The notes under the pieces are model-generated. The model ran no database searches and was not told the origin of the DNA. It worked only from the letters and a program-made list of their open reading frames with translations. Shown here in pieces: positions 1,283-18,583 of a DNA stretch of 64,000 nt (the first letter of the stretch is position 1; each line of letters starts with the position of its first letter). The stretch is from Nitrospirales bacterium (GTDB taxonomy: Bacteria; Nitrospirota; Nitrospiria; Nitrospirales; UBA8639). The translations under genes and the position numbers were made by a program. The stretch is from the NCBI GenBank assembly GCA_963422365.1, contig OY729426.1, positions 1,600,001-1,664,000 on the forward strand, given 5' to 3'.

Positions 1283-2452
1283 TTATGCTCCCCTGAATTT
1301 GAGAGCATTGGGAATGTTCGTTCGCATGGCGCGAACCGCCGGGAGCAATCCGCCAAGGGTTGCCATGAAGACGCCGAAGAGGACGCCCCATAGTGCGATC
1401 CGAGGAGTCAGGACAAAACCATAGGCCAATTCCGACATGGTGGCGTAGTTAATGGTTGACAGAGAAGTGAATTGAAGCAATGACGCCAGCGCGATGCCCA
1501 GACCGGAGCCAAGGAGCCCGATCAAGACCGACTCAAACACAAAGAGGTTGAAAATCCTCCTTCGCGTGAATCCCATCGCACGCAGGGTGGCGATCTCGGT
1601 GGTGCGATGCGCGACCGCGCCGTACATCGTGATCATGGCGCCGAGGCTTGCCCCCGCGCTGAAGAGCCCAGTCAGCATAAGCCCCATGGTTCGGATAAAA
1701 TTCGAGAGACCGCCGGATCGTGATTCATAATAAGCGGCTTCTTTGGTAATGGCTATCTGCAGGCGGGGATCTTGGTCGATACGGGATTGGAGCGTGGGAA
1801 ATAGCGAGGGGTCGCGCGGTCGAAAAATGGCTGAAGAATAATACGTGCGTCCGAACGCGTCCATGAATCGATCGGCATCCCCCCACATTTCGGATTCAAA
1901 GCCGCTTCCGTCCGCTTCAAAGGTTCCGACCACGGTCCAGTTCTGTCTGCCGAACCGAAGCGTTTGGCCCAGATCCGCATTTTTAAAGCGTCGAGCGATC
2001 TCTTTGCCCGTCACCACTTCATTCGTTCCGGGACGCCACATGCGGCCCTTCACAAGCTTCACTTGAGACCGCACGTGAAACGAGTCTGCCGATCCCCCAC
2101 GGAGGGTCACGTTGCCCGCGGTGTCTGTGCCCCGTTTTACTAAGCTGATGAGCACCACGATTTCAGGCGAGAACAGCGAGTGGCCGTTCTGTTGAGCAAT
2201 TTCCGGAAACGTTCGTAAGATGGCCGTCTGTTCCCGATAGAGTCCGCTTCCGATCTCGGAGATGGCTCCTTTCCGAAGGACCAAGACATTGTCCATGGAG
2301 CCGGTATTGACTAAGGTGTGCTCGACGCCGTGTGCCAACATTAAGACTCCCACAAAGATGAACACGACCAGGCCTACTCCCATGATCGTCAACAGGTTGG
2401 TGGTTCGTCGAGCGAGCAGGTGACGGAAATTGTATGAGAAAAAAATCTGCAT
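1283..2452 (-). CDS. ABC transporter permease, FtsX/MacB family
   Basis: N-terminal TM, large periplasmic domain, 3 C-terminal TMs, RTTEIATLRAMGF motif. Confidence 0.9.
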   Translation of the reverse strand: MQIFFSYNFRHLLARRTTNLLTIMGVGLVVFIFVGVLMLAHGVEHTLVNTGSMDNVLVLRKGAISEIGSGLYREQTAILRTFPEIAQQNGHSLFSPEIVVLISLVKRGTDTAGNVTLRGGSADSFHVRSQVKLVKGRMWRPGTNEVVTGKEIARRFKNADLGQTLRFGRQNWTVVGTFEADGSGFESEMWGDADRFMDAFGRTYYSSAIFRPRDPSLFPTLQSRIDQDPRLQIAITKEAAYYESRSGGLSNFIRTMGLMLTGLFSAGASLGAMITMYGAVAHRTTEIATLRAMGFTRRRIFNLFVFESVLIGLLGSGLGIALASLLQFTSLSTINYATMSELAYGFVLTPRIALWGVLFGVFMATLGGLLPAVRAMRTNIPNALKFRGA

Positions 2453-2494
2453 GGATCTGAGCCGTCAATTCCTATCCAGAAGACATAAGGGCGG

Positions 2495-2596
2495 CCCCCC
2501 CCGCTAACCTTGTCCCCGACATTTGTTATTGGGGAAACTGCGAGGATGACAATTGGCTGTTTCTGTCACTCCCGATATTTTTAGTCGGGAATCCAG
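2495..2596. repeat. Composite/nested REP-like palindromes between the two permease genes
   Basis: ccccgctaa[ccttgtccccgacatttgttattgggg]aaactgcgaggatgaca followed by tgtcactcccga...tcgggaatccag. Confidence 0.6.
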
Positions 2597-2674
2597 TCTC
2601 CGCATCTCATGCGGCCTAGAAAAGGTGCGATCCCTCGAACCCTTGGGGGATCGTGCGGTTAGAACGGGCATCAT

Positions 2675-3841
2675 TTATCCCATATGACGGAGTTCATTCC
2701 GAATCCGGCTGCGGAGGCAGAGCACAAACGGGATGACTGCCCCAACCAGCCCAATACTTACACTGAGGACCACCGCCAGCATCGGCAACTGAGCAGGTAG
2801 CTCAAACACCGTGAAAAACCCTCCCAAATTGCTGGTGAGGAACATGCCGAACCATCTGCTCGCGGGATACAGAAGGGCGACCCCAAGGATTCCCCCGAAA
2901 AGAGAGAGACATACCGATTCGCCGAAAATCAAGAGACTGAGATGAGGAGCCCGAAACCCCAACGTCTTCAAGATCCCGTATTCATGATGCCGTTCGCGAA
3001 CGCTCATTGCCATGGCATTGGCGACAACCAAGATACTGATGCCCAGGATGAGGAAAGACATGATTTCGACTACGCGAATGATAGCGCCGGACATGGTCAC
3101 CATGTTGGCTTGAAACGCCTGTTCTGTTTCCGTTCGGGTTTCCGCTATGGAATTGGTAAAGGCTTGATCGATCTCCGTGGAGATTTGTGCTGCCTGTTCG
3201 GGGTTGGCCATCTGAACCACAAACCAGCCCACGGTCCCTGCGCGAGCCGGATCGTCGAGTCGCCGGCGTTCGTCCACCGCGCTCCAGTGAAGATACATGC
3301 TCCCTTCAGACGCGGTCGGCGTCGTCCTTGTGTAGATTCCTCGTATCGTGAATTCCCAATCGCCCGGATAGAGACTGCCTTGCAGGCGGACAATGTCACC
3401 AATGTCCCAGCCGAGTTTGTCGGCGAGCTCTCGCCCCACGATGCAAGCCCGGCGATCCCGGAGAAAGGCGTTTCGTTGTGCCGGCGGCAAGTGAATTTCA
3501 GGATGGAGCCCTAAATACGAGGTCGACTCTACGGCATATCGAGGAAAAAATGCCTTGCCGTCCTTCCATCGTCCACCAAACCAGTTGGCGTAGGAAACCC
3601 CGCTCACGCCGGGAATTGCGGCAATGCGTTGTTGATAGGCCACCGGTAGTTGAAAGGAAATGGAAACGGCATGCCGGGTTCTCAAGCGATCGGGCTGCGA
3701 TCCCAGCGATCCCGCATACCAGGCCGTGACCGTTGTGCGAAGGAGACCAAAGGCCAGAATGATAATACACATGGTCAGGATGGTTAAAGTCGCCCGGAGC
3801 GGATGACGGAGCACGTTACGGAAGGTGTAGCGAAGCAACAT
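2675..3841 (-). CDS. ABC transporter permease, FtsX/MacB family
   Basis: Same topology as the neighbouring permease; SVRERHHEYGILKTLGF motif. Confidence 0.9.
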   Translation of the reverse strand: MLLRYTFRNVLRHPLRATLTILTMCIIILAFGLLRTTVTAWYAGSLGSQPDRLRTRHAVSISFQLPVAYQQRIAAIPGVSGVSYANWFGGRWKDGKAFFPRYAVESTSYLGLHPEIHLPPAQRNAFLRDRRACIVGRELADKLGWDIGDIVRLQGSLYPGDWEFTIRGIYTRTTPTASEGSMYLHWSAVDERRRLDDPARAGTVGWFVVQMANPEQAAQISTEIDQAFTNSIAETRTETEQAFQANMVTMSGAIIRVVEIMSFLILGISILVVANAMAMSVRERHHEYGILKTLGFRAPHLSLLIFGESVCLSLFGGILGVALLYPASRWFGMFLTSNLGGFFTVFELPAQLPMLAVVLSVSIGLVGAVIPFVLCLRSRIRNELRHMG

Positions 3842-4516
3842 TTATTCCAATCTTCCTTTCTGCAGCCTGCAGATAGTGGCGGCGCGTTGCGCGGCTTCGA
3901 GGTCATGGGTGACCAACACGATCGTCTTGCCTTGTTCCGTGTTCAGTCGTTGGAGCAGGGTCATGATCTCGTCTGCGGCGTCACTGTCCAAGTTGCCCGT
4001 CGGCTCATCCGCCAGGAGAATCGCGGGATCCATCACGATCGCTCGCGCAATCGCCACGCGCTGCTCCTGGCCTCCCGAGAGTTGACGCGGATAATGCGTC
4101 ATTCGGTCGGCCAATCCCACAAGCCGCAAGGCGGTCGACACGTGTTTCGCGCGTTTCGCACGGGACAGGGACGTCAGCAGCAACGGCAACTCCACGTTTT
4201 CAGCCGCCGTCAGAACCGGAATCAAATTGTAGAACTGGAAGATGAATCCGATTGTTTTGGCCCGCCATTTGGCAAGTTGATGGTCGGACAGTTGGTTCAC
4301 ATTGGTCTGATTGATGGACACGTGTCCGCGCACGGGACGGTCGAAGCCGGCCATCAGATTCAAAATGGTGGTTTTCCCCGACCCGGACGGGCCCAGCAAG
4401 GCCACGAAACTCGACGGTGCGATGGCGAGCGTCAGTTGCCTCAGGACGGGTATTTCGATGTCGTCTCGGAAATAGGAATGCGAAACTTTTTGAATGTCGA
4501 TGATGGATGAGGTCAT
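3842..4516 (-). CDS. ABC transporter ATP-binding protein (LolD/MacB-like)
   Basis: GPSGSGKT, LSGGQEQR, LLADEPTGNLD. Confidence 0.95.
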   Translation of the reverse strand: MTSSIIDIQKVSHSYFRDDIEIPVLRQLTLAIAPSSFVALLGPSGSGKTTILNLMAGFDRPVRGHVSINQTNVNQLSDHQLAKWRAKTIGFIFQFYNLIPVLTAAENVELPLLLTSLSRAKRAKHVSTALRLVGLADRMTHYPRQLSGGQEQRVAIARAIVMDPAILLADEPTGNLDSDAADEIMTLLQRLNTEQGKTIVLVTHDLEAAQRAATICRLQKGRLE

Positions 4517-4522
4517 GGGGCT

Positions 4523-5791
4523 TCACTCCTGAGCACGTTCTTGAATGAGACTGCCTGTGACGAGATCGTCGGAGGGATTGATGATAACGGTATTGCCTTG
4601 GACCACGTTCCCTCGAATGGGAATGAGCCCGTTACGAGGCGCTCCGGTTTCAACGGGTCTTTCCGACACCACGTTGTCCTTGACCAGCAGGACCGTCGTT
4701 TGTCCGTTTCGGGTTACGATGGCGTCGGGCGAAACCCCCAAGGTGTCAGGCGGTGCTTCTTCTTGGGAAGCCGACGAGGATTGACTCAAAAAAGTCACCG
4801 TGGCGCTCATGTCCGGAAAGACCTTTTCGTCCAGATCGTCAAAGCGAATTTTGACGGGAATGGTGGCTTTGGTCCGATCGGCCGTCGGGACAATCTGACT
4901 CACGCTGCCGTGATAGATATGGTCCGGAACGGCTTCCAAGCTAATATGGGCCGGTTGGTCGAGGCCCACCGAGTTGAGAAAGGACTCCGAGACTTCGGCT
5001 TCAACTTGCAATGTGCGTAAATCGGCGATCGCGGCGACCGAGCCTCGGGACTGAGAGGCGCCAGCCATCGGCGCCACGATTTCTCCGACTTCGGCGAATT
5101 TTTTCATGACGGTTCCATCAAAAGGGGCGCGAATCAAGGTGTTTTCAACGTCTACCTTCACCGCTTGAATTTCCGCTTGGGCCAGCTTCACCGCCGAGTA
5201 TGATGACCGCACCGATGCCCGCGCTCGACGCAACCGGGCTTCTGCGGTGTCGAGTTCTGACAGAGTGACAAGGCCCTTGTCCCATAAGACCTTGATTCGT
5301 CGGTAATGGAGCGTCGCTTCTCGTAACTCGGGCCGTGCATTGGCCAAGGCGGCCTTCGCGACGTCTAATCGGGCGTGCGTTTGTAAGAGCCTTGCCTTGA
5401 TGTCGGCCTGCTCCAGGGTCGCAATAATTTCTCCTTTGGTAACCCGATCTCCCACGTCAATGCGAACAGCCGTCAAACGGCCCGTGCCTTTTGACGCAAC
5501 GGATGCCTGCCGCTGGGCGACCACATATCCGGTTGCGGTCAAGAGCCCTCGAGCGGGTGACTGAAAGAAACGCTGTACGCGGGTGACTTGAACGCGAGTG
5601 GCGTGCAATGAAAGCCCACTCGTCATGTAGGAGCCGATCGAGAAAAGAATCACGGCGGCTCCGATCACGAACGCAAAGCTTTTCCCGAATCTCTTCGGCC
5701 TGTGAGTGGAATTTTTCTCTATGATGAGGTCGTCTAAATCTGGAGCGTCTTTACCCGAGGGAGAAGAGAAATTCTCGCTTTTCTCTTTCAT
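4523..5791 (-). CDS. Efflux periplasmic adaptor (MFP, MacA/HlyD-like)
   Basis: N-terminal TM, lipoyl halves (GDRVTKGE, IRAPFDGTV), alpha-hairpin, beta-barrel. Confidence 0.9.
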   Translation of the reverse strand: MKEKSENFSSPSGKDAPDLDDLIIEKNSTHRPKRFGKSFAFVIGAAVILFSIGSYMTSGLSLHATRVQVTRVQRFFQSPARGLLTATGYVVAQRQASVASKGTGRLTAVRIDVGDRVTKGEIIATLEQADIKARLLQTHARLDVAKAALANARPELREATLHYRRIKVLWDKGLVTLSELDTAEARLRRARASVRSSYSAVKLAQAEIQAVKVDVENTLIRAPFDGTVMKKFAEVGEIVAPMAGASQSRGSVAAIADLRTLQVEAEVSESFLNSVGLDQPAHISLEAVPDHIYHGSVSQIVPTADRTKATIPVKIRFDDLDEKVFPDMSATVTFLSQSSSASQEEAPPDTLGVSPDAIVTRNGQTTVLLVKDNVVSERPVETGAPRNGLIPIRGNVVQGNTVIINPSDDLVTGSLIQERAQE

Positions 5792-6378
5792 GCATGCGTT
5801 CCTGTCTGATAACCGGAATGGAGAGCATCTCGAAAGAACCGTGGTGATAATCCCGTCGCCTTTTTGAAAAAATGGCTGAAAGAAAACTGGTCTTGGAATC
5901 CGAGGGCCTGGGCGATTTCGGTCAAATTCTGTTCGGAATTTTCTAAAAGGCGTTTGGCCGTTTGAAGGCGAAGCCGTTTCAAATACGCAGAGAAGGGTTC
6001 TCCCATGTGTAGAATGAAGAAAACAGAACAGTACTTTTCCGAATATCCAAAATGTTCTGATAAATCCTTGAGGGTCAAGCCCTGGTGAAGATGGGTCACG
6101 ATGAATTCGTGGAGCCGTTCGGACAGGGTGGGGTTCGATGTCGCGAGGGTGTCGGAATCGGGTGACAGTGCCCGTAAAACGAATTCCTTCGCGATTTGTT
6201 GCTTGTCATGGTTTTGTCGACCTTGATAAAAGCGCCTAGCCCAATTGGCGGTATACGCAAACAATTCGCGGAGTAAGGCATGCTCATCGGCGGCACTGGA
6301 TGGTGACAAGGGACCCTTGTCCTTATCGAGGACGATGACTGAGGCAGAATGGAGATGTTCTTTTTCGTCCGTATTCAT
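5788..6378 (-). CDS. AraC-family transcriptional regulator
   Basis: C-terminal double HTH (LKDLSEHFGYSEKY...IAQALGFQDQFSFSHFFKKATGLSPRFFR); stop overlaps the MFP start. Confidence 0.9.
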   Translation of the reverse strand: MNTDEKEHLHSASVIVLDKDKGPLSPSSAADEHALLRELFAYTANWARRFYQGRQNHDKQQIAKEFVLRALSPDSDTLATSNPTLSERLHEFIVTHLHQGLTLKDLSEHFGYSEKYCSVFFILHMGEPFSAYLKRLRLQTAKRLLENSEQNLTEIAQALGFQDQFSFSHFFKKATGLSPRFFRDALHSGYQTGTHA

Positions 6379-6574: not shown

Positions 6575-7087
6575 TTACTCAGGGTCTCCTCGCATCATCA
6601 AGGGATGATTAAAAATCCACATTTCGTACATGGGAATCGCAAACATGATCAAAAACGTAATCGTCATGAGAACGTCGCCGGTCAACAGGGTCAATACGAA
6701 GAGGGGCGACACATAGGTGATGAGCCACGGCGACACGAGATCCAACGTCACGCCCACGAAGGCAACCCAGGTGGTCATCACTTTTACGAGAGGGCTGGCC
6801 ATGGTCAGATACAACACATGAACCATAATCAGAAACACGACCGGTAGCGTGAATAAGTGAAAATGTGTGGTTTCGGCCAATTGCCCGAACGACATGGGCT
6901 CGCCGAAATTATCATCAGACCCGCGATAGTGTTGGGCAATGCCTTTGGGTGTCAGGTCGGTCATGCTGTGTGCCCACACAAAGGTGAAGACAAATCCCGC
7001 GAACATGAAGAGAAGGAACCATGTGTACACCAATCGTATGTGGCGGTCAGTGTCACGTAGCCGAAACCGAGCATTGAAATTCCGCAT
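6575..7087 (-). CDS. Uncharacterised ~4-TM inner-membrane protein with candidate heme/metal His ligands
   Basis: Four hydrophobic segments; THFHLF...VH (H75, H77, H90). Function inferred only. Confidence 0.75.
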   Translation of the reverse strand: MRNFNARFRLRDTDRHIRLVYTWFLLFMFAGFVFTFVWAHSMTDLTPKGIAQHYRGSDDNFGEPMSFGQLAETTHFHLFTLPVVFLIMVHVLYLTMASPLVKVMTTWVAFVGVTLDLVSPWLITYVSPLFVLTLLTGDVLMTITFLIMFAIPMYEMWIFNHPLMMRGDPE

Positions 7088-7221
7088 CGTAAAGCAATCT
7101 TCACCGAGAGCCTTGAGATCTTCTTCTGTCAGTCGAGCCCTGAGCCTTTTCCGTCTCCCTCATTTCCACGCACGCACATCCTCGACCACGACCGGGGTTG
7201 GGAATTGAGAAGATCCCACGC

Positions 7222-7935
7222 TTAGAGCCCGAAGAGGGCTTCAAAGAATCCTTTTTCAGACTTGCCGGCGACCATGATGTTGGTACCGAGACCACGGGGC
7301 TTCAAATAGAATTCATTCACCAGCACGAGGACGCGTTTCACGCCGGCGCTTGCGGACCGCACGGACATCGTCGCCCCCGTGATATTAATGATATCTCGAT
7401 TAATCCGTATCGGGTCCCCGATGGTTTTCCCCTGGTACTGATAATTGAACCGTTTGGTGGCGATCTCATTGCCTCGGGCTTCCCGATACACCAGCACTTC
7501 AAAGTTCGTGACTTCGCCGGCTGAATCAACGGCCACCATGTACGTAATGGGGCGATGCTTGCCGATGGTATTCTGGACGATGGCATATCCGTCGATGTTT
7601 CCTTGGGTCTCCCCAATATAGACATCGAAGGAGGTTTCCGGAAATTCCCAGCCGATGGCTTGTTCGACCATGGTTTTTTGCTCTGCAGTCAAGATCAAGG
7701 TGTCCTTGCGAATCTTTTCGGAATCCGGAAACATGACGGTCGCAGCGTCTTCCTTCGTGAAATAAACTTCTAAATGTCCTAGTTCCTCAGGCGTGAGCCA
7801 TCGATTGAGCTCATGATCCCAGATTTGTTCCTGCGGGGAGGCTTGGGCAAACCCCTGGGATAAAGGAATCCCTAGCAAGACACTGCACATGGCAACAATT
7901 CCTGTAAGTCTTTGAATTAACTTAAAACCGTACAT
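7222..7935 (-). CDS. Exported FMN-binding domain protein (ApbE flavinylation substrate)
   Basis: Signal peptide; GKHRPITYMVAV...YRE.RG; flavinylation motif DIINITGATMS ([S/T]GA[S/T]). Confidence 0.85.
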   Translation of the reverse strand: MYGFKLIQRLTGIVAMCSVLLGIPLSQGFAQASPQEQIWDHELNRWLTPEELGHLEVYFTKEDAATVMFPDSEKIRKDTLILTAEQKTMVEQAIGWEFPETSFDVYIGETQGNIDGYAIVQNTIGKHRPITYMVAVDSAGEVTNFEVLVYREARGNEIATKRFNYQYQGKTIGDPIRINRDIINITGATMSVRSASAGVKRVLVLVNEFYLKPRGLGTNIMVAGKSEKGFFEALFGL

Positions 7936-8372
7936 CCCTTATCCTTTAGTTGTTTGGTAATCCGTTGGGCCAGACGCCGCTCCTCCTCGGCGATGGGGGG
8001 AATGCGTCTCCAGCCGGATTGCGACCTCGCACCCATGGGAGAAAAAAACTCCCGGACTTGCCGAACGGAGATCCTGATCGGCTGCCGGGCTGCTTCGACA
8101 TTCAGAAAAAATCGGGCGCGTTCCTCGTTGGACTCGCGTGAAAACACCCCGGCTTTTCGCTTGGAAGCAAAACCCACCCAATCGGTCGTAATCACCCCCT
8201 TGTCCTTATCCGTTTGACTCAACGCGAATTCATCCACGCTCGCGAGGGCCACGGACCATGCCTGGTCATAGGAACAGCCGGCGTTCACGGTGCTGGGTGC
8301 GCCGCCGGAAAGAGCCGCGCACCCCACCGTGAAAACAACCAAGAGCACAGAAAGAACGATATGCTTACCCAT
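7917..8372 (-). CDS. Lipoprotein (possibly BamC-like helix-grip domain)
   Basis: ATG at 8372 after aaggaa; lipobox FTVGC; DKDKGVITTDW motif. Confidence 0.75.
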   Translation of the reverse strand: MGKHIVLSVLLVVFTVGCAALSGGAPSTVNAGCSYDQAWSVALASVDEFALSQTDKDKGVITTDWVGFASKRKAGVFSRESNEERARFFLNVEAARQPIRISVRQVREFFSPMGARSQSGWRRIPPIAEEERRLAQRITKQLKDKGCTVLS

Positions 8373-8380
8373 AAATTCCT

Positions 8381-8421
8381 TCCCCCATCTCCCCTGGAGG
8401 GAGAGGGCCGGGGTGAGGGGA
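8381..8421. repeat. CCCTCTCCC-Nx-GGGAGAGGG palindromic repeat family
   Basis: Related copies at ~10090-10131, ~10546-10570, ~13108-13166. Confidence 0.55.
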
Positions 8422-8428
8422 TCTTCGC

Positions 8429-9967
8429 CTAGAAGTACGTCGACATATTGAATTGCCACCCGTCGCGATTCGTGGCCGGGTCATTATTTTCCCTCTCATG
8501 TCTATTAAACGTATAGGCTATCTTGAGGACCGAATCTTCTATCGGCCGGAAATTGAGCCCCAGGGTCAACCGGTCGATGGCATTCGGGTTGCTGTCATCA
8601 TCGGTGTTGGTATCCACCTGTCCCCAACGAACGATGCCCGTAAACGTCGAGTCCTGGCCGAAGTAGCCGGGCAAGGCCCTGGTGAGCCCATCCGGCATAA
8701 AGTGGTAATTCAATTGCACGTAATAGCCGAACATATTTTCGGGGACGACGTAACTTCTTCCGAAAGATACATCCTGAAGGCGCCTCGTTGCTCCGGTAGT
8801 ATCCTGAGTGAATATTCGACTCGCAGGACACTGACTTTCATCTTCCAGGGTACAAATCGACTGTGTCCCGCTCCCTTCGGCGTTGGCCCAGGCGGCTTCA
8901 CCCTGGATGTCAAAGGGCCCTCGTTGCAGGTTCCCGTCGATGGCGAGCAGGGTCAGGTAATGGTCCTCAGGGTCGTCCTCCTTGTTCCATTGGCCGTGGT
9001 GAATGGACCCGGCCACCTCGACTCCCAACACAGGGCTGAACGAGATACGGCTGACAATCGCCTTGTTTCGGTTGTTATCCTTTTGAAAACTTCCGCGAGC
9101 AGATCGCAACCCGCTTCCTTCTTCGACCGAAAACTGGCCGTCATCGCCCACAAAACCATTCGTGAGGTAAAATTCGTAGTCGATCTTGGAAAGCGCGGTC
9201 GGATAGACCGTGCCGAAAAAGCCGATCCCGCTTTCGGCAAACGTGGAAGGCAGGATCAATCGGCTCACCATAGGCCGAAGCGGCAAATCGTTCAAGGGCG
9301 AGTCGTGGATGAGGTTGAACCGGCCCATGGGCATCAGGATGATGCCCCCACGCAGGTTGAATGCGTCGTTGAACCGGTAGTCCATGGTGGCGAATTCCAT
9401 CTTGATGTCCCCGTCCCCTTGGTTGCCCTGGGGGCCGCCGTGTTCAACCTCGAGTTCAGCGGCCACGCTGAGCCGGTCCGTGACCTGGGAATAGAAGAAC
9501 GGCACGAAGCGTTCCTGGTCGAAATCAATCCCGTTTCTACAATCCCGTGAGCCTCCTGAATTGTGTTTCGCGCCAGGCTTGCCGTCACAGTCCGAGATTG
9601 TGAAGTCGATGTACCCGCCGATGATGGTTTTCGGCGCCTTGACAAAAGGTCTGGCGTAGATGGTCCGTCCACCCTGCAGGCCAGCACCACCCGAGAAGTC
9701 CGTGCCGTATCGGATTGACTGTTTTGTGGTGTCGCCCATGGCCGGCGCGGAAGTCCCCATTTTGCGCGGGGGCTGCGGTGCCGCTATGGCCGGCCCTCCC
9801 GCTGCAGGTGGCTGCTGCTGTTGTCGCTGTTGTTTTGACCACTCTTCAAACATTTTTCGTATCTGTTCCATTTGGGCAGGAGTAAATTCTTCTCCCTCGG
9901 CCCAGACAGTTGTGTGCGGCACAATCATGAGGACCATCATTGCCCCCGCGATCAATAATCGTCGCAT
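8429..9967 (-). CDS. Outer-membrane beta-barrel protein (porin-like)
   Basis: GGAGG then ATG at 9967; signal peptide; Gln/Pro-rich N-terminus; amphipathic strands (ELEVEHG); C-terminal ...STYF; two Cys pairs in probable loops. Confidence 0.85.
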   Translation of the reverse strand: MRRLLIAGAMMVLMIVPHTTVWAEGEEFTPAQMEQIRKMFEEWSKQQRQQQQPPAAGGPAIAAPQPPRKMGTSAPAMGDTTKQSIRYGTDFSGGAGLQGGRTIYARPFVKAPKTIIGGYIDFTISDCDGKPGAKHNSGGSRDCRNGIDFDQERFVPFFYSQVTDRLSVAAELEVEHGGPQGNQGDGDIKMEFATMDYRFNDAFNLRGGIILMPMGRFNLIHDSPLNDLPLRPMVSRLILPSTFAESGIGFFGTVYPTALSKIDYEFYLTNGFVGDDGQFSVEEGSGLRSARGSFQKDNNRNKAIVSRISFSPVLGVEVAGSIHHGQWNKEDDPEDHYLTLLAIDGNLQRGPFDIQGEAAWANAEGSGTQSICTLEDESQCPASRIFTQDTTGATRRLQDVSFGRSYVVPENMFGYYVQLNYHFMPDGLTRALPGYFGQDSTFTGIVRWGQVDTNTDDDSNPNAIDRLTLGLNFRPIEDSVLKIAYTFNRHERENNDPATNRDGWQFNMSTYF

Positions 9968-10143
9968 CGAACGACCTCCTTGTTGTTGGGGACTCTGCCT
10001 GTCCTCTGGATTACTCAAGGGGCTCTTGTGGCCCTCAAATTCCGTCTTGGTATTGTGTGTGTCTAGTGGATTTCCACCTCTCTAATATACCTCCCTCTCC
10101 CCCTGTGGGAGAGGGGCGGGGTAAGGGGGGGCTTACCCTTTTG

Positions 10144-10341
10144 CTAATAGCCGCATGGCGCTAAGATGACTTCGGTTTCCTTGAGACTGTTATAGGAAAT
10201 AGAGACGATGCGTTTACAGCGTTTACACTTGAGTTCAAGGTTCTCTCCGCGAATTTTTGCGATGAGTTGGCCGCATTCACATCTCGCCTCTGTAGGCTTG
10301 AATTGCTTCCCTAGCCACCGAGTATTTCGATCAGCATCCAT
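10144..10341 (-). CDS. Small Cys4 zinc-ribbon protein, phage Mu Com-like
   Basis: EARCECGQLIAK...LELKCKRCKRI resembles the Com pattern (RC..C.KLL...EIKCPRCK). Start could be TTG 10350 or ATG 10341. Confidence 0.7.
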   Translation of the reverse strand: MDADRNTRWLGKQFKPTEARCECGQLIAKIRGENLELKCKRCKRIVSISYNSLKETEVILAPCGY

Positions 10342-10422
10342 TGAATTCAAAAGAAAGTTGTGGAGTTTCCAAAAAACCCCTAATCAAAAATTAGAATGAT
10401 ACTTGTTTTTATTTAAATTGAT

Positions 10423-10467
10423 TTTGAGAACTTTTATTAACATAGAGCAAGTTTTGTGGCTTGTCAA
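10423..10467 (-). promoter_or_regulatory. sigma70 promoter with overlapping Fur-box-like site
   Basis: TTGACA (10467-10462), 17 bp, TATGTT (10444-10439); TTTGAGAACTTTTATTAAC at 10423-10441 overlaps the -10 and start region. Confidence 0.65.
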
Positions 10468-10739
10468 CTCTTTTCGGTCATAAAGAAAAATATGACTGCA
10501 ACCTGTTGATCGTATTGGTAAAATGAGATGATTGACTCTTATCCGGCCTCTCCCTTGGAGGGAGAAGGCCGAAGAAGTGGATCCCCGCTAAAAACTGCGG
10601 GGAGGACAAGAGGATGTACTGCGGGGATGACAAGCAAGAGCACGAAGGACAAGAAAGAACGGGAATGACCGCATGAATTCCGAAAGGCCATCAAAGCGTA
10701 GTTGTCTGGGGTCTCAGCCGTGAGGCCAACGCAGGGACT

Positions 10740-11319
10740 ATGATGGGCAGAAAAGTCTTGTTGGGGGTAGCGATTCTTTCTCTTGTTGTTGTGACGGGAT
10801 GTGCGTCAGGGCTTTCGGATACTTCCCCGGACTCGATGACGAGTGAATTGGCGTTTGGCTATGTTCGAGTCGAGACCAAAGGGCCTCATCCGCGTGCGTT
10901 TCCAACCAAACTGAGGTTTTTCCCCCTGACCAATCAAGAGACGGGAGCACGATTTCGAGTTGACGTAAATTCCAAATCGGGCGTGTTTTCGATGAGATTA
11001 CCGGCTGGACCGTATTCCATTGACCGAGTGCAATTTAATGCAGGCCCGTTTCAGGTTGAATCCCATGTGCAATTGACATTTCAGGTACCCAAAAAGAAGT
11101 TGGCTAGGGGGCTGGCAATTTGAGGTCGAAACGCCGCGTACCGTTCGGCTTGTGCGGATTCGGATTCTTGAAGGGGATGCGGAGTTCTCAAAGAAATTTT
11201 CCGCGGATCTCGGATCAGAACGAGCACCCATTGAAACGACGTTGCCGAAACCTGAGACATTCGAAGCTCGTGTGTTTTCGGTTGCCCCTCAACCGAGAGT
11301 CAAATATTTCCGTCGTTGA
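10740..11319 (+). pseudogene. Frameshifted lipoprotein gene upstream of apbE
   Basis: Lipobox VTGC; the frame breaks near 11105, and another frame continues WQFEVETPRTVR...PRVKYFRR to TGA 11319. Confidence 0.6.
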
Positions 11320-11335
11320 TAAACTGCCTGACAAA

Positions 11336-12370
11336 ATGATGAAAGGGGTTCCTCTCGTCTTGGTTGGACTCTTGGGTGTCTCTTTCGCGTGTTGGCCGGG
11401 CTTCAGTCTGCAGGGATATGCTGCCGCACCCCATGTGGCCAAGCGCGGCCAAATGCATATGGGGACCCTGGTCTTTTTGACGTCCGTCGCCCCAAATGAA
11501 CGGGTGGCTCACGATGCCATTGAAAAAGGGTTTGCCGAAATTCACCGCCTGGAAGAAATCTTGAGTGCGTGGATTCCAGACAGTGAACTCTCCCGCGTCA
11601 ATGCCGCGGCAGGGAAAACGCCCATCAAGGTCAGTCCGGAAACCTTAGAGGTCTTGGCGCGCTCTGTAGACATGGCTCGAGTGACCGATGGGGGTTTCAA
11701 CGTTGCTATTGGTCCGGCCGTAGAGGCCTGGAATATTAGTCGTGAAGGGCGTATCCCGACTCAGGAAGAATTAGAGGCCACACGTCCTTCCATGGATCTT
11801 TCCGCTATTCATCTCAATAAGGACGCGGGCACCGTATATCTGGCTCGTTCCGGGATGCAGGTGGATATCGGCGGGATCGGCAAGGGATATGCCGCGGATT
11901 TCGTGGCCCGCGTGATGCGAGAAGCCGGTGCCTCAGCGGGCGTGGTCGCCATTTCCGGGGATATTACAACCTTTGGGCGCTTGCCCGATGGCCAACGTTT
12001 CGTGTTCGGCATCCAGCATCCTCGAAAAGAGAATGGGATCACGATCGGGCAACTTGAACTCGAAGATGAGGCCGTTTCCACGGCTGGTGATTACCAACGA
12101 TATTTTCTGAAGGACGGCATTCGTTATCATCACATTCTCGACCCTCAAACGCTTCAGCCCGCGCGTCTCTCTCAGAGTGTGACCATCGTAGCCCAAACCG
12201 GTGTGCTTGCCGATGGGCTCGATACGGGAATTTTTGTCATGGGTCCGGAAAAAGGGATGGCTTTGATTGAACGCCTGCCCGGAGTCGAAGGCGTGATTGT
12301 CGGTGCGGATGGAACCGTGTCCGTCTCTTCGGGATTACAAGACCGGTTGCAGATGAGTCCAGGGCCGTAA
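11336..12370 (+). CDS. apbE: FAD:protein FMN transferase ApbE
   Basis: MGT, SELSRVN, DIGGIGKGYAAD, STAGDYQRY, RYHHILDP, ADGLDT; start reassigned to ATG 11336. Confidence 0.95.
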   Translation: MMKGVPLVLVGLLGVSFACWPGFSLQGYAAAPHVAKRGQMHMGTLVFLTSVAPNERVAHDAIEKGFAEIHRLEEILSAWIPDSELSRVNAAAGKTPIKVSPETLEVLARSVDMARVTDGGFNVAIGPAVEAWNISREGRIPTQEELEATRPSMDLSAIHLNKDAGTVYLARSGMQVDIGGIGKGYAADFVARVMREAGASAGVVAISGDITTFGRLPDGQRFVFGIQHPRKENGITIGQLELEDEAVSTAGDYQRYFLKDGIRYHHILDPQTLQPARLSQSVTIVAQTGVLADGLDTGIFVMGPEKGMALIERLPGVEGVIVGADGTVSVSSGLQDRLQMSPGP

Positions 12371-13215: not shown

Positions 13216-13974
13216 TTATTGTTCGTCGTCTTCGTTTTTCTTATGCATCATATTGCCGCCATGGGCCTTCATGCGTTCGTGAATGTTATCCATCCGAGAT
13301 CGTTGCTCGGGGGACAACACGGCTTTGGCGTCCCGCTTGGCTTTGATTGAAGCCATGTAGAGCTTCGTCTTCAAGGCATGCATGGCGTTGAATTGCACTT
13401 CAATGTCGGAGAGACTCGCTTTCTCGTCTTTCAAGACTTCATGCAGGTCGACACTGGCTAATTGCACTTCGGCCTTCATCTTGATCCGAGTCTTCTTATA
13501 CGTCGTCTTGAGCGCATGAAGTTGCTGCTCTTGTTTGGCTGTTACACTCATTCCTTCTTTAAATTTCAATAGATGCGTAATAAATTCCGTTGCGCCCTGA
13601 TGGGTGCCGGGATGCGTAGAACCGAAACCATGGCGATCATGCCCTTTGGTGTGGTGGCTTCCGTATCCTGACGAATGCATTGGATGATGCCCTTTGCCAT
13701 GCCTCTTATGCATGCCATCATGTTGGGAAGACCGGGAATCGTCACCATGCCCCTGATACGAATCTTTTGGGTGATGGCCGCCGTCATGGGGCAATGCGCT
13801 CGATTTGCCGTGATTATGGAGGCTGGTGGCAGCATGAGCATCCTTCGAATCTTCATGCGGCAATCCATGCATAGAGTCAGGAGGGTCGGCAAAAGCTGGA
13901 ACGGCAGACAGCAAAACGAGCATGGTCAACAGGGAAACAGGTGAAAACCAGGAAGGTGGTTCATGGATTCTCAT
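13216..13974 (-). CDS. Exported His-rich protein with Spy/CpxP/ZraP-like helical domain
   Basis: AAGGAGG then ATG at 13974; signal peptide ending AFA; 21 His in about 98 aa; VLSPEQR (LTxxQ-like). Confidence 0.8.
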   Translation of the reverse strand: MRIHEPPSWFSPVSLLTMLVLLSAVPAFADPPDSMHGLPHEDSKDAHAATSLHNHGKSSALPHDGGHHPKDSYQGHGDDSRSSQHDGMHKRHGKGHHPMHSSGYGSHHTKGHDRHGFGSTHPGTHQGATEFITHLLKFKEGMSVTAKQEQQLHALKTTYKKTRIKMKAEVQLASVDLHEVLKDEKASLSDIEVQFNAMHALKTKLYMASIKAKRDAKAVLSPEQRSRMDNIHERMKAHGGNMMHKKNEDDEQ

Positions 13975-14152
13975 GTTCGGTTCCTCCTTATGAATGGTTG
14001 GTCGATGGGATAAAGGGTTTGTCGGTGTGAAGTTTTCAACATTCGCGGGGTGTCCTCTGAGTGACGACAATAGGCCATTATAAAACACTGAAGATAGTGA
14101 TTGCGAATTGAGGCCTTGGCCTGTTTCAAGTGACGCCAAGAGAAAACGCGCA

Positions 14153-15220
14153 TCACGCATTTCTGTCAAAGAGTACCGTGTGGGTGGCAATGACGTTCAA
14201 TCCCACCTTTGAGTCGAGAGGGAACAATTGGGTCGAGGCTTCGCTGCTATGAACGAGATCGCCGGAAGCCAGGCGGATTCCATAAATCGTCTCCGAGCCT
14301 CGAAACTGCCGGGATTCAACGGTTCCGTCTCCGTTATTGGTTCCACAAATTTGGATGTCATCCGGTCGAATCATGACCACGACTTCAGGGCCGCCCGGGT
14401 AGCCGTTCGGCATCGGGAACGTGCCGAGTTGAGTCACGACGACAGAATCGTGGATGGTTCCAGGGATGAAGTCGGCGTGCCCCACAAACTCCGCGACAAA
14501 GGGCGAAACCGGAAGATGGTATATGGTTTCGGGTGCTGCGAATTGTTCGAGTTTCCCGTTATTCAAGACGGCCACGTCATCAGCCATGGCAAAGGCTTCT
14601 TCATGATCATGCGTGACGAGAACGGCGGTGGTTTGAGTTTTTTTCAGCAAGTGCAGGAGTTCCATGCGCATGCGGCAAGTCGTATCCGGATCCAGGTTGC
14701 TGAACGGCTCGTCCAACAGGAGCAGCACCGGTTGGGGGGCAAGGGCGCGTGCCAATGCCGCGCGTTGCTGTTGGCCGCCCGACAGCGAATGAGGGTATCG
14801 TCGGGCAAGTTCTGAAAGCCCTGTGAGAGACAACATCTCATCAATTTGGCCCCTCCGGTTGTTTGCTGTTGCATGCGGCAACCCGAATCCCACGTTATCC
14901 TGTACGGTCAAGTGCGGAAAGAGCGCATAGTCCTGAAAAACCATGCCGACCCGCCGTTGTTCGGTGGGGACGTGCCGATCAGTCGCCGAGACGATTGCCC
15001 CGTTCAGCCTGATTTCGCCGGCGGACACCGATTCAAATCCCGCGATAGCCCGAAGCGTTGTGGTCTTCCCGCATCCTGACGGCCCTAACAGACAAATAAT
15101 GTCACCTTTCTGAGCCGAAAAGGAAATCCCTTCTAGCGCTAAGGTGTCGGCTTCATACGAGCAGGCGACGTCTTTCATCTCGAGCACAATGGGCTTGTCG
15201 TCGGGAGGTCGTGGCATCAT
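14153..15220 (-). CDS. fbpC: Fe(III) ABC transporter ATPase (FutC/FbpC/SfuC)
   Basis: GPSGCGKT, VFQDYALFPH, LSGGQQQR, TOBE-like C-terminus; operon context. Confidence 0.9.
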   Translation of the reverse strand: MMPRPPDDKPIVLEMKDVACSYEADTLALEGISFSAQKGDIICLLGPSGCGKTTTLRAIAGFESVSAGEIRLNGAIVSATDRHVPTEQRRVGMVFQDYALFPHLTVQDNVGFGLPHATANNRRGQIDEMLSLTGLSELARRYPHSLSGGQQQRAALARALAPQPVLLLLDEPFSNLDPDTTCRMRMELLHLLKKTQTTAVLVTHDHEEAFAMADDVAVLNNGKLEQFAAPETIYHLPVSPFVAEFVGHADFIPGTIHDSVVVTQLGTFPMPNGYPGGPEVVVMIRPDDIQICGTNNGDGTVESRQFRGSETIYGIRLASGDLVHSSEASTQLFPLDSKVGLNVIATHTVLFDRNA

Positions 15221-15291
15221 ATCCGTCTAAGAAAAATCTTCCTTGCCGGATTTGCTAAAGCGGATCTCATGGCAGAGTGGACACGGTGAGG

Positions 15292-16911
15292 TTACGTCGG
15301 TTGTCGATCTTTTTGCATCAATAATAACACGACCGGAATGGTAATGACCACGATCAGCAAGGCCGGAGGCGCAGCTAATTGATACAGTTCCTCACTGGCT
15401 TCAAGCCAAATTCTGACGGCGAGTGTGTCGAATCCCACGGGACGCAGCAGGAGTGAAGCCGGCAATTCCTTCATACATTGGACAAACACGAAGATCCAGG
15501 CACTCAGAAACCCACCTCGCACCAACGGCAGGGTCACGTGAAAAAAGGTTCGAAGGGATCGAGCCCCAAGGCTTCGCGCCGCCTCTTCGAGATTCGGCGT
15601 GAGCTGCTGAAGGGTGGATTCCATGCCTTGCAGTGCTGCCGGGAGAAAATGGACCAAATAGGCCAGGAGCAAGACGAGCACCGTGCCATACAGTTGTGGA
15701 ATGGTGTGCGAGACCAAGACGAATACGGCGAGGGCGGCGACCGGCCCTGGAAGCACATAGCCGGTATACGCCCCTTGCACACAAAAAGTACTGGTCCAGG
15801 TCTGATGTCGGCACGCTAAATAGGCGAGGGGAATTCCACAGATTACGGCCACCGTGGCCGTGATACTCGAGAGCGAGACACTGTTCCACACGTATCCGAT
15901 GAATTCATGAGAAATCTCACCGGCAGACGCGGCTTTAACAGTCCATTGAATGAGCAGAAGCACCGGCAGGCCGAAGGCCGCTCCGAACACGAGAAGAAGA
16001 TAGCCTGTAAACAGCAGAGCCGTGAAGGGAGGGCAAGGTTGAGGAACCGGTGTTCGATACCGGCCGGTGGTTTGGTAAAACCGGCTCCGTTGTCGGAACC
16101 ACCGTTCGCCGAACAGAAAGATAAATGCGCACGCGACTAATACCAGACTCAAACAGGCGGCTGCCGTGTTGTCGAATCGTCCGGTCATTTGCTGGTACAC
16201 GGCATAGGTAAAAGTTTGAAAGCGCAACAGCGAAACCGCGCCGAAATCAGAAGCGACGTAGAGAATCGCCAAGAAAAGTCCGGCGATCAGTGATGGGCGG
16301 ATGAGCGGAAGCGACACTCGGAAGAACGTCGTCACTCGATTGGCTCCGGTCGTGCGGGCGACTTCTTCAAAGGAGATATTAAAATTTTTGAGAGCCGATC
16401 GAGCCAACAGGTATACAAACGGAAACGTGTTCAACGCAAGAATGAGAACCGCGCCTGCAAAACTAAAAGGTGAAAACAAAAGAGAGTCTGTTCCGGCCAT
16501 GGTTTGCCAGACGTGTTCCAGCGTGCCCCCGCGTTTTAACAGGTAGGTATAGGTATAGGCCAGAACGTAGGAGGGGATGGACAAGGGCAAAATCAGCAAC
16601 CAATCCCATATTCGGGACCCGAGAAAGGTATAACGAGTCAGGATCCAAGCGAGTGAGACTCCCAGGGTCAGATTCACGACTGCGACGCCAAGGGATAAGG
16701 AGAGCGTGTTGAAGAGTAATTCCGGGACCCGTGTAGCCCAGAGTCTTCGCCACACCGCCGGGTCTGCCGTTAGGGCCGAAAAGGCGATGTAGAACAACGG
16801 CAGCATGATCGCAAGGGCCAGGGAAAAGCCGAGCAGGACAAGCGGAGAAGGGAAACGAAAACGGAGCGATGACAGTGGGAGAAAAGGGTTAGCGGAGTCC
16901 AACGTCTTCAA
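15292..16911 (-). CDS. fbpB: Fe(III) ABC transporter permease (FutB/FbpB/SfuB)
   Basis: Two BPD permease halves with EAA motifs (EEVARTTG, EEAARSLG). Confidence 0.9.
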   Translation of the reverse strand: MKTLDSANPFLPLSSLRFRFPSPLVLLGFSLALAIMLPLFYIAFSALTADPAVWRRLWATRVPELLFNTLSLSLGVAVVNLTLGVSLAWILTRYTFLGSRIWDWLLILPLSIPSYVLAYTYTYLLKRGGTLEHVWQTMAGTDSLLFSPFSFAGAVLILALNTFPFVYLLARSALKNFNISFEEVARTTGANRVTTFFRVSLPLIRPSLIAGLFLAILYVASDFGAVSLLRFQTFTYAVYQQMTGRFDNTAAACLSLVLVACAFIFLFGERWFRQRSRFYQTTGRYRTPVPQPCPPFTALLFTGYLLLVFGAAFGLPVLLLIQWTVKAASAGEISHEFIGYVWNSVSLSSITATVAVICGIPLAYLACRHQTWTSTFCVQGAYTGYVLPGPVAALAVFVLVSHTIPQLYGTVLVLLLAYLVHFLPAALQGMESTLQQLTPNLEEAARSLGARSLRTFFHVTLPLVRGGFLSAWIFVFVQCMKELPASLLLRPVGFDTLAVRIWLEASEELYQLAAPPALLIVVITIPVVLLLMQKDRQPT

Positions 16912-17929
16912 TGACAGTCATCGTGGGATCGCGGAGTTGAGCCAAGCGGCTTAAAGGAACACGGGCCACCTGAACACTCTGAAGCGGCAGCAGTTCAGGC
17001 GCAGCCGTCACATGAGGATTCAGGGGATATTCTTTGTTCACGTTCGCGAACATGCGTTGCCCTTTGGGAGAGATAAGAAATCGGATCAAGGCCTGAGCCT
17101 GCGCAAGGCGTTTGGTGTGCGCAGTGATGCCAATTCCCGCGGCATTGAGAATAACGCCCATACCCTGATTCCCTTGATCGGTCAGCAGCGGGGCAATCGG
17201 TGCATCGGGGTGTTGGGCCAGATGACGGTTAATATAATAATGATTGACCAGACCTGCGGCCACTTCCCCGCGTGCCACGGCTGCCACAATTTGCCGATTT
17301 TTCCCATAGACAAATGACCCTGCATTGTCCTTTAAACCTCGCAGGAACGTGGTGGTCGCCTCATTCCCCTTCACTGCACGAATAACCGACACGCCGTTCT
17401 GCAAGTAGACGCTGCCTGCACTGGGAATCGCGAGGTTACCTTTCCATTTCGGGTCGGCGAGATCCAGAATAGAGGAGAGATCGCCGGGGTGGACCATGGC
17501 GGTGTTATAGACGATCACCCAAAGTCGACCTGATAAGCCAATCCAACTATTGTCCGGTGCCCGGAATCGGCTGGGAATGCTTTTCTCAAGGTCAGGAATG
17601 GTACTGGTTTGGAGCAGCTGTAATTCACGCGCGCGCTCCAAGGTTCCGGCGTCATTGGTAATGAGGACGTCAGATGGAGTCCGATCCCCTTCCATCCGAA
17701 GCCGGTTGATCAACGCCGTGCTGTCCGCAGTCAGCATTTGAATGCTGATGTCCGATTCGGCTTGAAACGCATCGAGTACCGGTTGAATGAGCCGTTCGGC
17801 TCGGCCGGAGTAGACCACCAGCGTATCCCCGGCATAGCCCAAGGACGGGAGGGCGAGGGCTGCCACGAAGAACAAACAGACTTTTCGAATGAAGATGATG
17901 AGACGATTGTCGCGAATCCGTTGTCTCAA
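16889..17929 (-). CDS. fbpA: Fe(III)-binding periplasmic protein (FutA/FbpA/SfuA)
   Basis: VYSGR, NHYY tandem Tyr ligands; likely TTG start overlapping the fur stop (TTGA). Confidence 0.9.
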   Translation of the reverse strand: MRQRIRDNRLIIFIRKVCLFFVAALALPSLGYAGDTLVVYSGRAERLIQPVLDAFQAESDISIQMLTADSTALINRLRMEGDRTPSDVLITNDAGTLERARELQLLQTSTIPDLEKSIPSRFRAPDNSWIGLSGRLWVIVYNTAMVHPGDLSSILDLADPKWKGNLAIPSAGSVYLQNGVSVIRAVKGNEATTTFLRGLKDNAGSFVYGKNRQIVAAVARGEVAAGLVNHYYINRHLAQHPDAPIAPLLTDQGNQGMGVILNAAGIGITAHTKRLAQAQALIRFLISPKGQRMFANVNKEYPLNPHVTAAPELLPLQSVQVARVPLSRLAQLRDPTMTVIEDVGLR

Positions 17930-18414
17930 CGTCGTTCTATCCTTGCATTGGCGATCAAGTCTCGCCCGCAATTTTTGCACTCACCCTTCGGCAATTGTAT
18001 GGGGGTCCCATATAGTTCTAGTTTATGGGTATGAATCGTAAAACCGTTATTTCTCGCGACTTCTTCTTGTAATGCTTCAATCTGGCAATTCTCGAATTCT
18101 ATGATTTTATCACACACCGTGCAGATGAGATGATCATGGTGCCCTTTGTGGGCCACATTATCGAACTGAGTCTGATTGCCGAAATGTTGCTCTTGCGCGA
18201 GGCCGGTCTCGCACAGAAGTTTAAGCGTGCGGTAGACCGTGGCAAGGCCGATATGGGGGTTCTTCTTGGAGAGCAGCCGATACATCTGTTCGGCCGTTAC
18301 GTGTTCCATCTTCAAAAAGGTCTTGAGAATGTTCTCACGTTGGCGGGTCAGCTTAAGGCTGTTTTTAGAAAGGTGTTGCTTGAGAATCTCGAGTTCTTTG
18401 ATGGGCTTTGCCAT
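17926..18414 (-). CDS. fur: Fur-family transcriptional repressor
   Basis: LTRQR, GLATVYRTL, HHDHLICTVC, C-terminal CKNC; heads the Fe(III) uptake operon. Confidence 0.92.
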   Translation of the reverse strand: MAKPIKELEILKQHLSKNSLKLTRQRENILKTFLKMEHVTAEQMYRLLSKKNPHIGLATVYRTLKLLCETGLAQEQHFGNQTQFDNVAHKGHHDHLICTVCDKIIEFENCQIEALQEEVARNNGFTIHTHKLELYGTPIQLPKGECKNCGRDLIANARIERR

Positions 18415-18445
18415 ACCAATAAATTCCCATGTGTATAGAAAAGCT

Positions 18446-18474
18446 ATTAAACCGAAATATGGTCGAAGGGTCAA
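18446..18474 (-). promoter_or_regulatory. sigma70 promoter of the fur operon
   Basis: TTGACC, 17 bp, TTTAAT, 32 bp upstream of the fur ATG. Confidence 0.5.
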
Positions 18475-18583
18475 GCCAGCAGTGAACGTCATTGAGAGTG
18501 ATGACAGTTTTTTTTAGCAAGAGACTCTCTTGCCCGGACCGTATTTGCAGCCATGCGTATCTCTCGCTACCTTAAAAGCTGTC

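Follow-up and report, generated by a model that had tools for sequence, protein, structure and literature searches.

What passes electrons to the carrier protein, predicted to be flavinylated, that is encoded in this stretch of Nitrospirales DNA, and to what end? The window, that is, the whole stretch analyzed, comprises 64,000 nt of the genome of a Nitrospirales bacterium (UBA8639; GCA_963422365.1, contig OY729426.1, positions 1,600,001-1,664,000 of the forward strand). It includes a cassette of genes for a predicted outer-membrane porin, a lipoprotein, an exported flavin mononucleotide (FMN)-binding protein of the FMN_bind family, and an inner-membrane protein with four transmembrane (TM) helices, hereafter the 4-TM protein; apbE, encoding a flavin adenine dinucleotide (FAD):protein FMN transferase, lies divergent to them. 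Rechecking of the open reading frames (ORFs) bore out the place and orientation that the initial annotation gave to these five genes, and also its remark that no Rnf/Nqr, MsrQ-like, PepSY, or DsbD electron donor is encoded at the locus; the genome gave no match to the first two, and its PepSY and DsbD/CcdA genes lie far off. We consider that the 4-TM protein may take this role as a trimeric cytochrome b with three hemes, which passes electrons from the membrane to the flavoprotein and thereby reduces Fe(III), a reading to which we assign a probability of about 0.48. The module itself is a real, conserved, and apparently undescribed variant of the flavinylation-linked envelope redox systems.

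The flavoprotein and its candidate membrane partner

The flavoprotein gene (7222..7935, minus strand) encodes an exported, RnfG-related protein with a hydrophobic N-terminal segment and an FMN_bind domain (PF04205; 33.2 bits against a cut-off of 22). The flavinylation motif recognized earlier was confirmed as I185-T-G-A-T-M-S191, in which T189 of TGATMS is the predicted site of attachment; G187, T189, and S191 are invariant in all 90 aligned FMN proteins, which additionally conserve H127, YRE150-152, and RF162-163. ApbE (PF02424, E 3e-79) is encoded on the plus strand; its divergence from the cassette stands as first described, although its start probably lies near 11336 (gene at 11336..12370) rather than at 11120, where the longest ORF begins.

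Genome-wide searches, which refer to the window's genome (98.6% complete), returned a single ApbE and a single FMN_bind match. No match was found there to Rnf/Nqr (PF03116, RnfD/NqrB), MsrQ (PF01794), or DUF4405 (PF14358), and one DsbD/CcdA domain is present, far from the cassette; NosR was not searched for as such, the genome's FMN_bind matches amounting to this one protein only. Identification of the flavoprotein as an Rnf/Nqr subunit is ruled out, no match to RnfD/NqrB having been found in the genome. PepSY is likewise ruled out as the donor, its only clear copy being frameshifted, 360 kb off, and next to a broken TonB-dependent receptor gene. At G000:C1:1245253-1248694, TonB-dependent receptor and PepSY-TM genes, both split over several frames, represent either a decayed siderophore-uptake unit or assembly errors.

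The 4-TM protein (170 aa; 6575..7087), lipoprotein A (approximately 151 aa, with a Cys following a hydrophobic segment; 7917..8372), and the porin (approximately 512 aa; 8429..9967) are also encoded on the minus strand, the starts of the porin (9967) and lipoprotein A (8372) having been chosen on ribosome-binding-site support. Given these starts, the partial overlap of genes described initially is retained for lipoprotein A and the FMN_bind gene, which share 19 bp, but not for the others. The porin exhibits a weak match to Porin_O_P (E 0.023), and a sequence search of the PDB revealed no relative. It ends in Phe, as do 42 of the 44 rows of its family, and its conserved residues are E171/E173/E175/E191/H221/E245; in a small search, its profile also scored Cyc2-like barrels (E 1e-8 and 2e-6). 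A second copy of the porin is found at locus L072.

Of 151 Nitrospirota genomes taken in a single draw, 50 gave a match to the 4-TM profile and 37 to the window's FMN protein, the latter being exactly those genomes which possess a short-loop 4-TM gene (see below), at adjacent coordinates; genome G090 has neither of the two. The cassette order was the same in all 18 Nitrospirales loci fetched, with an Fbp-type ATP-binding cassette (ABC) transporter alongside, and is therefore not attributed to chance. Two genomes of another family encode a porin, an ApbE-FMN fusion, and a 4-TM protein, and ApbE+FMN_bind fusions are present at L069 and L070. A scan of GTDB genomes using a clade-specific pattern yielded 237 relatives, and the counts for other phyla refer to the best 80 of these 237 loci, which are mostly from Myxococcota with some from Methylomirabilota, many being kin. 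An FMN gene is present at 74 of these 80 loci, a porin at 19, and apbE at 9; where 4 kb were available on both sides, the FMN gene was found in 46/47. The co-occurrence of 4-TM and FMN-binding genes, on which the initial annotation had placed weight, thus holds for 37/37 Nitrospirota genomes and 74/80 loci elsewhere.

In the Myxococcota-type genomes tested, apbE lies elsewhere in the genome (5/5), and four of these five also encode other FMN_bind proteins. Two database proteins (P0209 and P0253) fuse the 4-TM domain to ApbE; longer fused 4-TM forms were absent among 7996 candidates, which constitutes weak evidence, as two ApbE fusions were already known. Lipoprotein A accompanies the cassette in Nitrospirales only. 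Because the porin, the lipoproteins, and the position of apbE vary, the flavoprotein and the 4-TM protein are regarded as the fixed core, and the porin and apbE are accessory in position.

Histidines, clades, and predicted assembly of the 4-TM protein

The 4-TM protein contains histidines at positions 16, 40, 53, 75, 77, 90, and 161. It gives no direct Pfam match, and its membership in PF27139 rests on its homologues, 120 of 120 of which, among the matches listed (71-90% identity), carry this family as a precomputed assignment; the name Aq_1264_TM derives from the Atlas record of P0034, and the names of the close homologues indicate Nitrospirota. No match to PF03929, PF01794, PF14358, PF02683, or PF03116 was found in the protein or in any of 107 aligned members.

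H75 and H77 occupy the only invariant columns in the 107 full-length rows, and likewise in 38 paralogue-rich rows. They are present in 109/109 distant representatives, a slightly flattering figure since P0131 and P0135, which are without the HxH, were read as frameshifted there; of the best 150 representatives 137 possess HxH, and 11 are fragments ending short of it. H90 is found in 81 of the 108 distant representatives and lacks conservation among paralogues of the cytochrome-c and histidine-loop types; its presence in 80/80 scanned loci belongs to a set selected by a clade-specific pattern. Of the three histidines originally singled out, H75 and H77 are thus invariant, whereas H90 is clade-specific, and the argument for heme from histidines spaced 13 residues apart in one helix is not supported. 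H77-H90 is ruled out as a heme pair on the same ground.

A tree of the TM2-4 core, constructed with 40 rows chosen from the loci, splits into three supported clades, all of which retain the HxH. Members of clade 1 are partnered by the flavoprotein, have a short loop, and possess H90. In clade 2, a CxxCH cytochrome c is inserted in the periplasmic loop just before HxH; some of its members have multiheme cytochromes around them or follow a Cyc2-like porin-cytochrome (presumably so, judging by its signature), and others lie among unrelated genes. The fused cytochrome c and the cytochrome neighbors together point to redox work. Clade 3 is characterized by an acidic, His-rich periplasmic loop and resides mostly in CbiMQ-DUF4198-OprB (Co/Ni) operons, where its FMN-fold partners lack the flavinylation motif at the usual place.

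The Cyc2-like porin-cytochromes, with an N-terminal CxxCH and a porin barrel, are encoded at L046:3586-5671 and L043:866-2131; in L046 the gene lies immediately upstream of that for the cytochrome-c-fused 4-TM paralogue, from which it is 6 kb distant in L043. The paralogue is a candidate for the inner-membrane partner in electron transfer of the Cyc2 type. The fused paralogue of L044 lies among genes for 11- and 6-heme proteins, and that of L234 among genes for 4-, 6-, and 9-heme proteins, a cytochrome b domain being present in one of them. In L035, L037, and L041 (also L036, L039, L042, L045, L047, and L048) the His/acid-loop paralogue ends OprB-DUF4198-CbiMQO-type operons, which encode an exported FMN-fold protein with an initial His motif and no C-terminal flavinylation motif. 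Locus L183 is labeled as belonging to an enterobacterial metagenome-assembled genome, yet in the tree its 4-TM protein falls among rows from Myxococcota and alphaproteobacteria; the bin is probably mislabeled.

The AlphaFold2 model of the monomer (pLDDT, the predicted local distance difference test, 92.5) consists of long helices at residues 15-43, 67-93, 99-125, and 128-157 and a short one at 47-55; prediction and alignment agree on four TM helices, the HxH being located early in the second. When three copies were modeled together with three hemes, a homotrimer was predicted (score 0.87; best of three controls 0.00); among proteins of solved structure, the mark for this score was attained by 20 of 30 that are pairs of one chain and by 1 of 23 that are single chains. 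The contact agreement between trimer runs was at least 91%, with a pLDDT of at least 82. In the trimer model the TM2 helices meet at the axis (83-83, 84-83, and 87-83), TM1 packs on TM2 and TM3 of a neighbor, and H75 contacts residues 31 and 34 of the neighbor's TM1. A helical-wheel estimate places H77 on the face opposite H75, toward the other neighbor. With the two residues projecting from opposite sides of the same helix, every cleft would receive an H75 and an H77, and hemes would be ligated between the subunits of the trimer rather than along a single helix.

The structural comparison suggested by the initial annotation yielded the four long helices but no Foldseek match at E 0.001; in the list of weak monomer matches oxidase subunit I and MAPEG proteins recur, and the whole-monomer fold search is dominated by generic bundles. 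Re-alignment ranks oxidase subunit I (COX1) first (residues 26-549, 139 aligned, Z 7.8), a span that would fit TM1 standing in for helix I next to helices X-XII. For TM2-4 alone, the model matches R. sphaeroides COX1 406-525 (Z 6.8, root-mean-square deviation 4.2, 101/101 aligned, 16% identity), and, if the alignment is ungapped, H75/H77 fall on HFH 419-421 of helix X, residues which we take to be heme ligands. Against ba3 59-173 (Z 3.6), H75 would fall, again if ungapped, on residue 72, presumably also a heme ligand, and against styrene oxide isomerase (SOI) 46-156 (Z 7.8, 93 residues, 6% identity) on residue 59 with the same proviso; TM2-4 aligns as well with mPGES1 59-153. Homology to the oxidases at the level of sequence was not detected by hhalign or by profile searches of the PDB. 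As no sequence-profile link was found, and bundles score equally, we say that the protein works like a single oxidase unit and have not filed it as a member.

Iron setting, proposed electron path, and alternatives

A palindrome conserved in Nitrospirales lies upstream of the porin at 10422..10442, with the form of a 7-1-7 operator; we take it to be of the Fur type from its consensus. A matrix built from the sites of 18 relatives, one of which (L056) was mis-picked, gives this site the top rank genome-wide. The best promoter candidate at the porin, a sigma-70-like TTGACA-17-TATGTT (10439..10467, minus strand), overlaps the box with its -10 end. In other phyla, the box is found at the start of the FMN gene, where 61 of 72 loci exhibit at least 11/14 matches, compared to 0/70 downstream windows and 6/451 other gene starts; of the two consensus strings behind these counts, one was picked after the sites had been seen. 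Four of the six belong to two Methylomirabilis loci, in which the operon begins with fur (and FTR1 in L199). The genome-wide test of the box in two Myxococcota-type genomes was mixed: sites in G155 precede a cytochrome c-FTR1-like gene and exbB, while in G151 three box matches precede the starts of oxidoreductase or regulator genes, which are not related to iron. The local Fur-family protein scores below every named cut-off, and no Fur-box passage was found in PMC9973013. At L203:15173-19911, a short way upstream of the window, TonB-dependent receptor and TonB genes are present, with a weak match to the same box (rank 35) before the receptor.

The genes for fur and an Fbp/Fut-type ABC transporter (binding protein, permease, and ATPase) occupy 14153..18492 on the minus strand and are conserved beside the cassette in Nitrospirales; like the box and the lipoprotein B gene described below, they do not figure in the initial annotation. 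We presume the transporter to be specific for Fe(III), a property not confirmed by a named model. Across loci, Fur, FTR1, FeoB (adjacent in L033), TonB/ExbBD, and a ferritin-like protein are encoded in the neighborhood of the cassette; the unit of many Myxococcota comprises only the box, the FMN gene, and the 4-TM gene, with no transporter nearby. The proposed link to iron acquisition is therefore upheld by the box, the transporter, fur, and the iron-uptake neighbors.

We envisage that iron shortage would derepress the operon through the Fur-type box, and that ApbE would attach FMN to T189 of the periplasmic protein. The 4-TM homotrimer would bind three b-hemes, likely near the periplasmic face, each in a cleft where H77 of one subunit faces H75 of the adjoining subunit, an arrangement like that of heme a in heme-copper oxidases, of which styrene oxide isomerase represents a solved form with a single His. 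It would take electrons from the membrane pool, with quinol as the putative donor, and reduce the flavoprotein, the FMN on T189 being the presumed acceptor. The flavoprotein would in turn reduce Fe(III) complexes that had entered through the acid-lined porin, and the freed iron may be taken up by the ABC transporter alongside, or by FeoB/FTR1 in other lineages. H90, kept in the flavoprotein-partnered subfamily only, may mark a cytoplasm-side site for quinol, metal, or a further heme.

A number of points weigh against this path. Hemes on one side only leave the source of electrons unexplained, and the step from quinol to FMN would be uphill. For the Fe(II) import step, the window's genome contains no FeoB-level match (best 51 bits, vs. 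170 for a true FeoB_N) and no FTR1, other Fe(II) importers not having been searched for. The motif-less partners of clade 3 mean that flavin is not required in every branch, and the non-iron sites of G151 add to the difficulty. The calibration of the trimer score is only rough here, since the job used a custom alignment and a ligand; it considered three copies only and gave an output without heme positions, and the score may also reflect the model's memory of solved trimers. With regard to the fold, apart from the lack of a Foldseek match, soluble helical bundles score equal to or higher (Z 8.7-8.9) than the oxidase matches, and the histidine registers assume gapless alignments of which the end points alone are visible. 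A qNOR match (342-462) would set H75 about seven residues from what we take to be the ligand. Furthermore, the probability from hhalign against oxidase units did not exceed 1.1%, the oxidase alignment being shallow (25-30 rows), and the profile searches of the PDB found no oxidase.

We judge it unlikely that the trimer is instead a metal permease or hub, its histidines binding metal rather than heme, to which a flavoprotein reduced elsewhere delivers Fe(II). Such a function would suit a genome in which neither FeoB nor FTR1 was found, the many Myxococcota units with no transporter nearby, and the presence of the His-loop clade, with its acidic His-rich periplasmic loop and motif-less partners, in Co/Ni operons, as well as the position of H90 in the subunit interface near the axis. 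The predicted axis, however, is lined by the hydrophobic residues V83 and I87, and H75/H77 would face the inter-subunit clefts rather than the axis; the cytochrome-c clade implies electron transfer, and a transporter is often already adjacent.

Less probable again is a reversed flow through the same heme trimer and flavoprotein, whereby periplasmic Fe(II) would be oxidized and its electrons enter the membrane, feeding the importers of Fe(III) (Fbp, FTR1). The adjacent importers are indeed mostly Fbp-type or FTR1, which we take to move Fe(III), and the cytochrome-c paralogue of L046 stands directly behind a Cyc2-like porin-cytochrome, the barrels of which are scored by the porin profile; yet covalent FMN carriers are presumably of low potential and poor oxidants of Fe(II), and FeoB is also an adjacent gene, in L033. 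The iron-linked flavinylation clusters are, moreover, read as reductases in PMC8238504. Least of all do we expect the pair to be an iron-sparing or stress redox branch under Fur-family control, in which the flavoprotein replaces a periplasmic cytochrome c or the trimer detoxifies peroxide or NO: the sister clade does have a fused cytochrome c where the flavoprotein clade has a short loop and a partner, a flavin-for-cytochrome exchange in iron-poor settings is proposed in PMC8238504 as well, and the local Fur-family protein falls below all named cut-offs, but the occurrence, in the same units, of iron importers and of a dedicated porin lined with acidic residues suits uptake better, two histidines per cleft would close the heme to ligands, and no terminal acceptor enzyme recurs among the neighbors.

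Reduction of Fe(III) by way of a heme-bearing trimer and its flavoprotein, the explanation we prefer, would add a new membrane partner to the flavinylation-linked electron-transfer systems. It would also account for the sole ApbE and the sole FMN_bind gene of these nitrifier-lineage genomes, in which neither FeoB nor FTR1 was found; the iron demand of such genomes is high.

Other features surround the cassette. The gene for lipoprotein B (10740..11319, plus strand) is frameshifted near 11095-11105, with the same letters in short-read contigs of three runs, and is intact (approximately 204 aa) in relatives. Contigs from one presumed RNA run extend over portions of the genes on the minus strand but leave apbE uncovered; they were not counted as evidence. 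An exported His-rich protein with an LTXXQ/CpxP-like domain is encoded at 13216-14190 (minus strand), between apbE and the ABC transporter; it is conserved in the window's family, with copies in tandem or broken in L060 and L062. Short repeats occur within and around the operon (8388-8420, with similar elements near 10084-10128 and 10545-10610), and since 8388-8420 and 10578-10609 are matched by contigs from elsewhere in the same runs, they resemble dispersed REP-type (repetitive extragenic palindromic) elements. The 4-TM gene is followed at 1283-6378 (minus strand) by genes for an AraC-type regulator, an HlyD adaptor, and MacAB/LolCDE-like ABC proteins, a run also seen in L060, L066, and L071 and absent from most relatives. 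In several Nitrospira-family loci (L064, L066, L067, L071, and L072) a diheme cytochrome c peroxidase-like lipoprotein (approximately 580 aa, identified by eye) and an HD-domain protein are encoded downstream of the 4-TM gene. An ORF of 3709 aa at 47526-58655 (minus strand) has a G+C content of 60-70%, compared to approximately 52% around it.

Comparison with known systems

In the portions of PMC8238504 and PMC11334425 that were available, the membrane partners in flavinylation are Rnf/Nqr-like, MsrQ-like, PepSY-like (FoxB), DsbD, and DUF4405/FezC proteins; the Aq_1264_TM family is not mentioned in that text, though the cluster tables of these papers may list it. The ApbE-flavinylation clusters described there resemble the present one in possessing apbE, an exported FMN_bind substrate with [S/T]GA[S/T], a His-bearing membrane protein, Fur control, and iron-transporter neighbors. 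The differences from the PepSY-, MsrQ-like, and DUF4405 clusters, as these are presented there, are that the 4-TM protein is outside those families and that the module has its own porin; furthermore, theirs are two heme sites across the membrane, whereas here a one-helix HxH lies on the periplasmic side of a predicted trimer. In the literature searched, PF27139 and aq_1262-1265 are not named, and no description of the module was apparent from titles and the beginnings of abstracts; nor did it yield the residue numbering of the oxidase histidines. The flavoprotein is related to RnfG/NqrC through its FMN_bind domain (TIGR01947, 29.9 bits; PDB 9ERI_G, E 2e-5) and shares their motif, but the TIGR01947 score is far under the cut-off (102), H127, YRE150-152, and RF162-163 are additional, and RnfD/NqrB is missing.

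With helices X-XII of heme-copper oxidase subunit I, the 4-TM protein has in common a four-helix build with HxH early in the second helix and, by prediction, a three-fold arrangement with helix 2 at the center. It differs in being one unit as against three fused ones, in the absence of the copper-site histidine, and in a TM1 apparently swapped to the neighbor. We view it as a possibility, although one we would not bet on, that Aq_1264_TM proteins are stand-alone units of the heme-copper-oxidase fold that keep both histidines and form C3 trimers with three bis-His hemes b. They would then constitute a novel class of membrane-bound cytochromes b, and a present-day counterpart of the module whose triplication gave rise to oxidase subunit I. 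The trimer would serve as a plug-in electron terminal of the membrane with an exchangeable periplasmic side, consisting of an ApbE-flavinylated protein where iron is taken up under Fur control, of a fused cytochrome c in the vicinity of multiheme or Cyc2-like proteins, or, for Co/Ni uptake, of a loop that binds metal. If the trimer binds three hemes via HxH, it would offer a small, expressible test of the origin of the oxidases from a four-helix heme-binding trimer, and one membrane module would join the flavin-based and cytochrome-based periplasmic routes. Pei et al. in 2014 reportedly described four-helix "HCO homology" (heme-copper oxidase) proteins, and may already list the Aq_1264_TM family.

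Two groups of small membrane trimers complete the comparison. The MAPEG trimers (mPGES1, MGST2, and LTC4S), which have the oxidase core topology (PMC4602095), provide the top natural membrane match for TM2-4 (Z 8.7, 16% identity), and differ in having no heme, a glutathione chemistry, and no HxH. In SOI, H58 holds heme b where the trimer's subunits meet (PDB 8PNU), according to PMC11374702 and PMC12502698. On that account, SOI resembles the predicted 4-TM assembly as a small membrane homotrimer with an interface heme b and a histidine near the start of TM2, within one residue of ours if the alignment is ungapped; it employs a single histidine, and its iron offers epoxides an open Lewis-acid site; the 4-TM family, in contrast, has two histidines and a flavoprotein partner.

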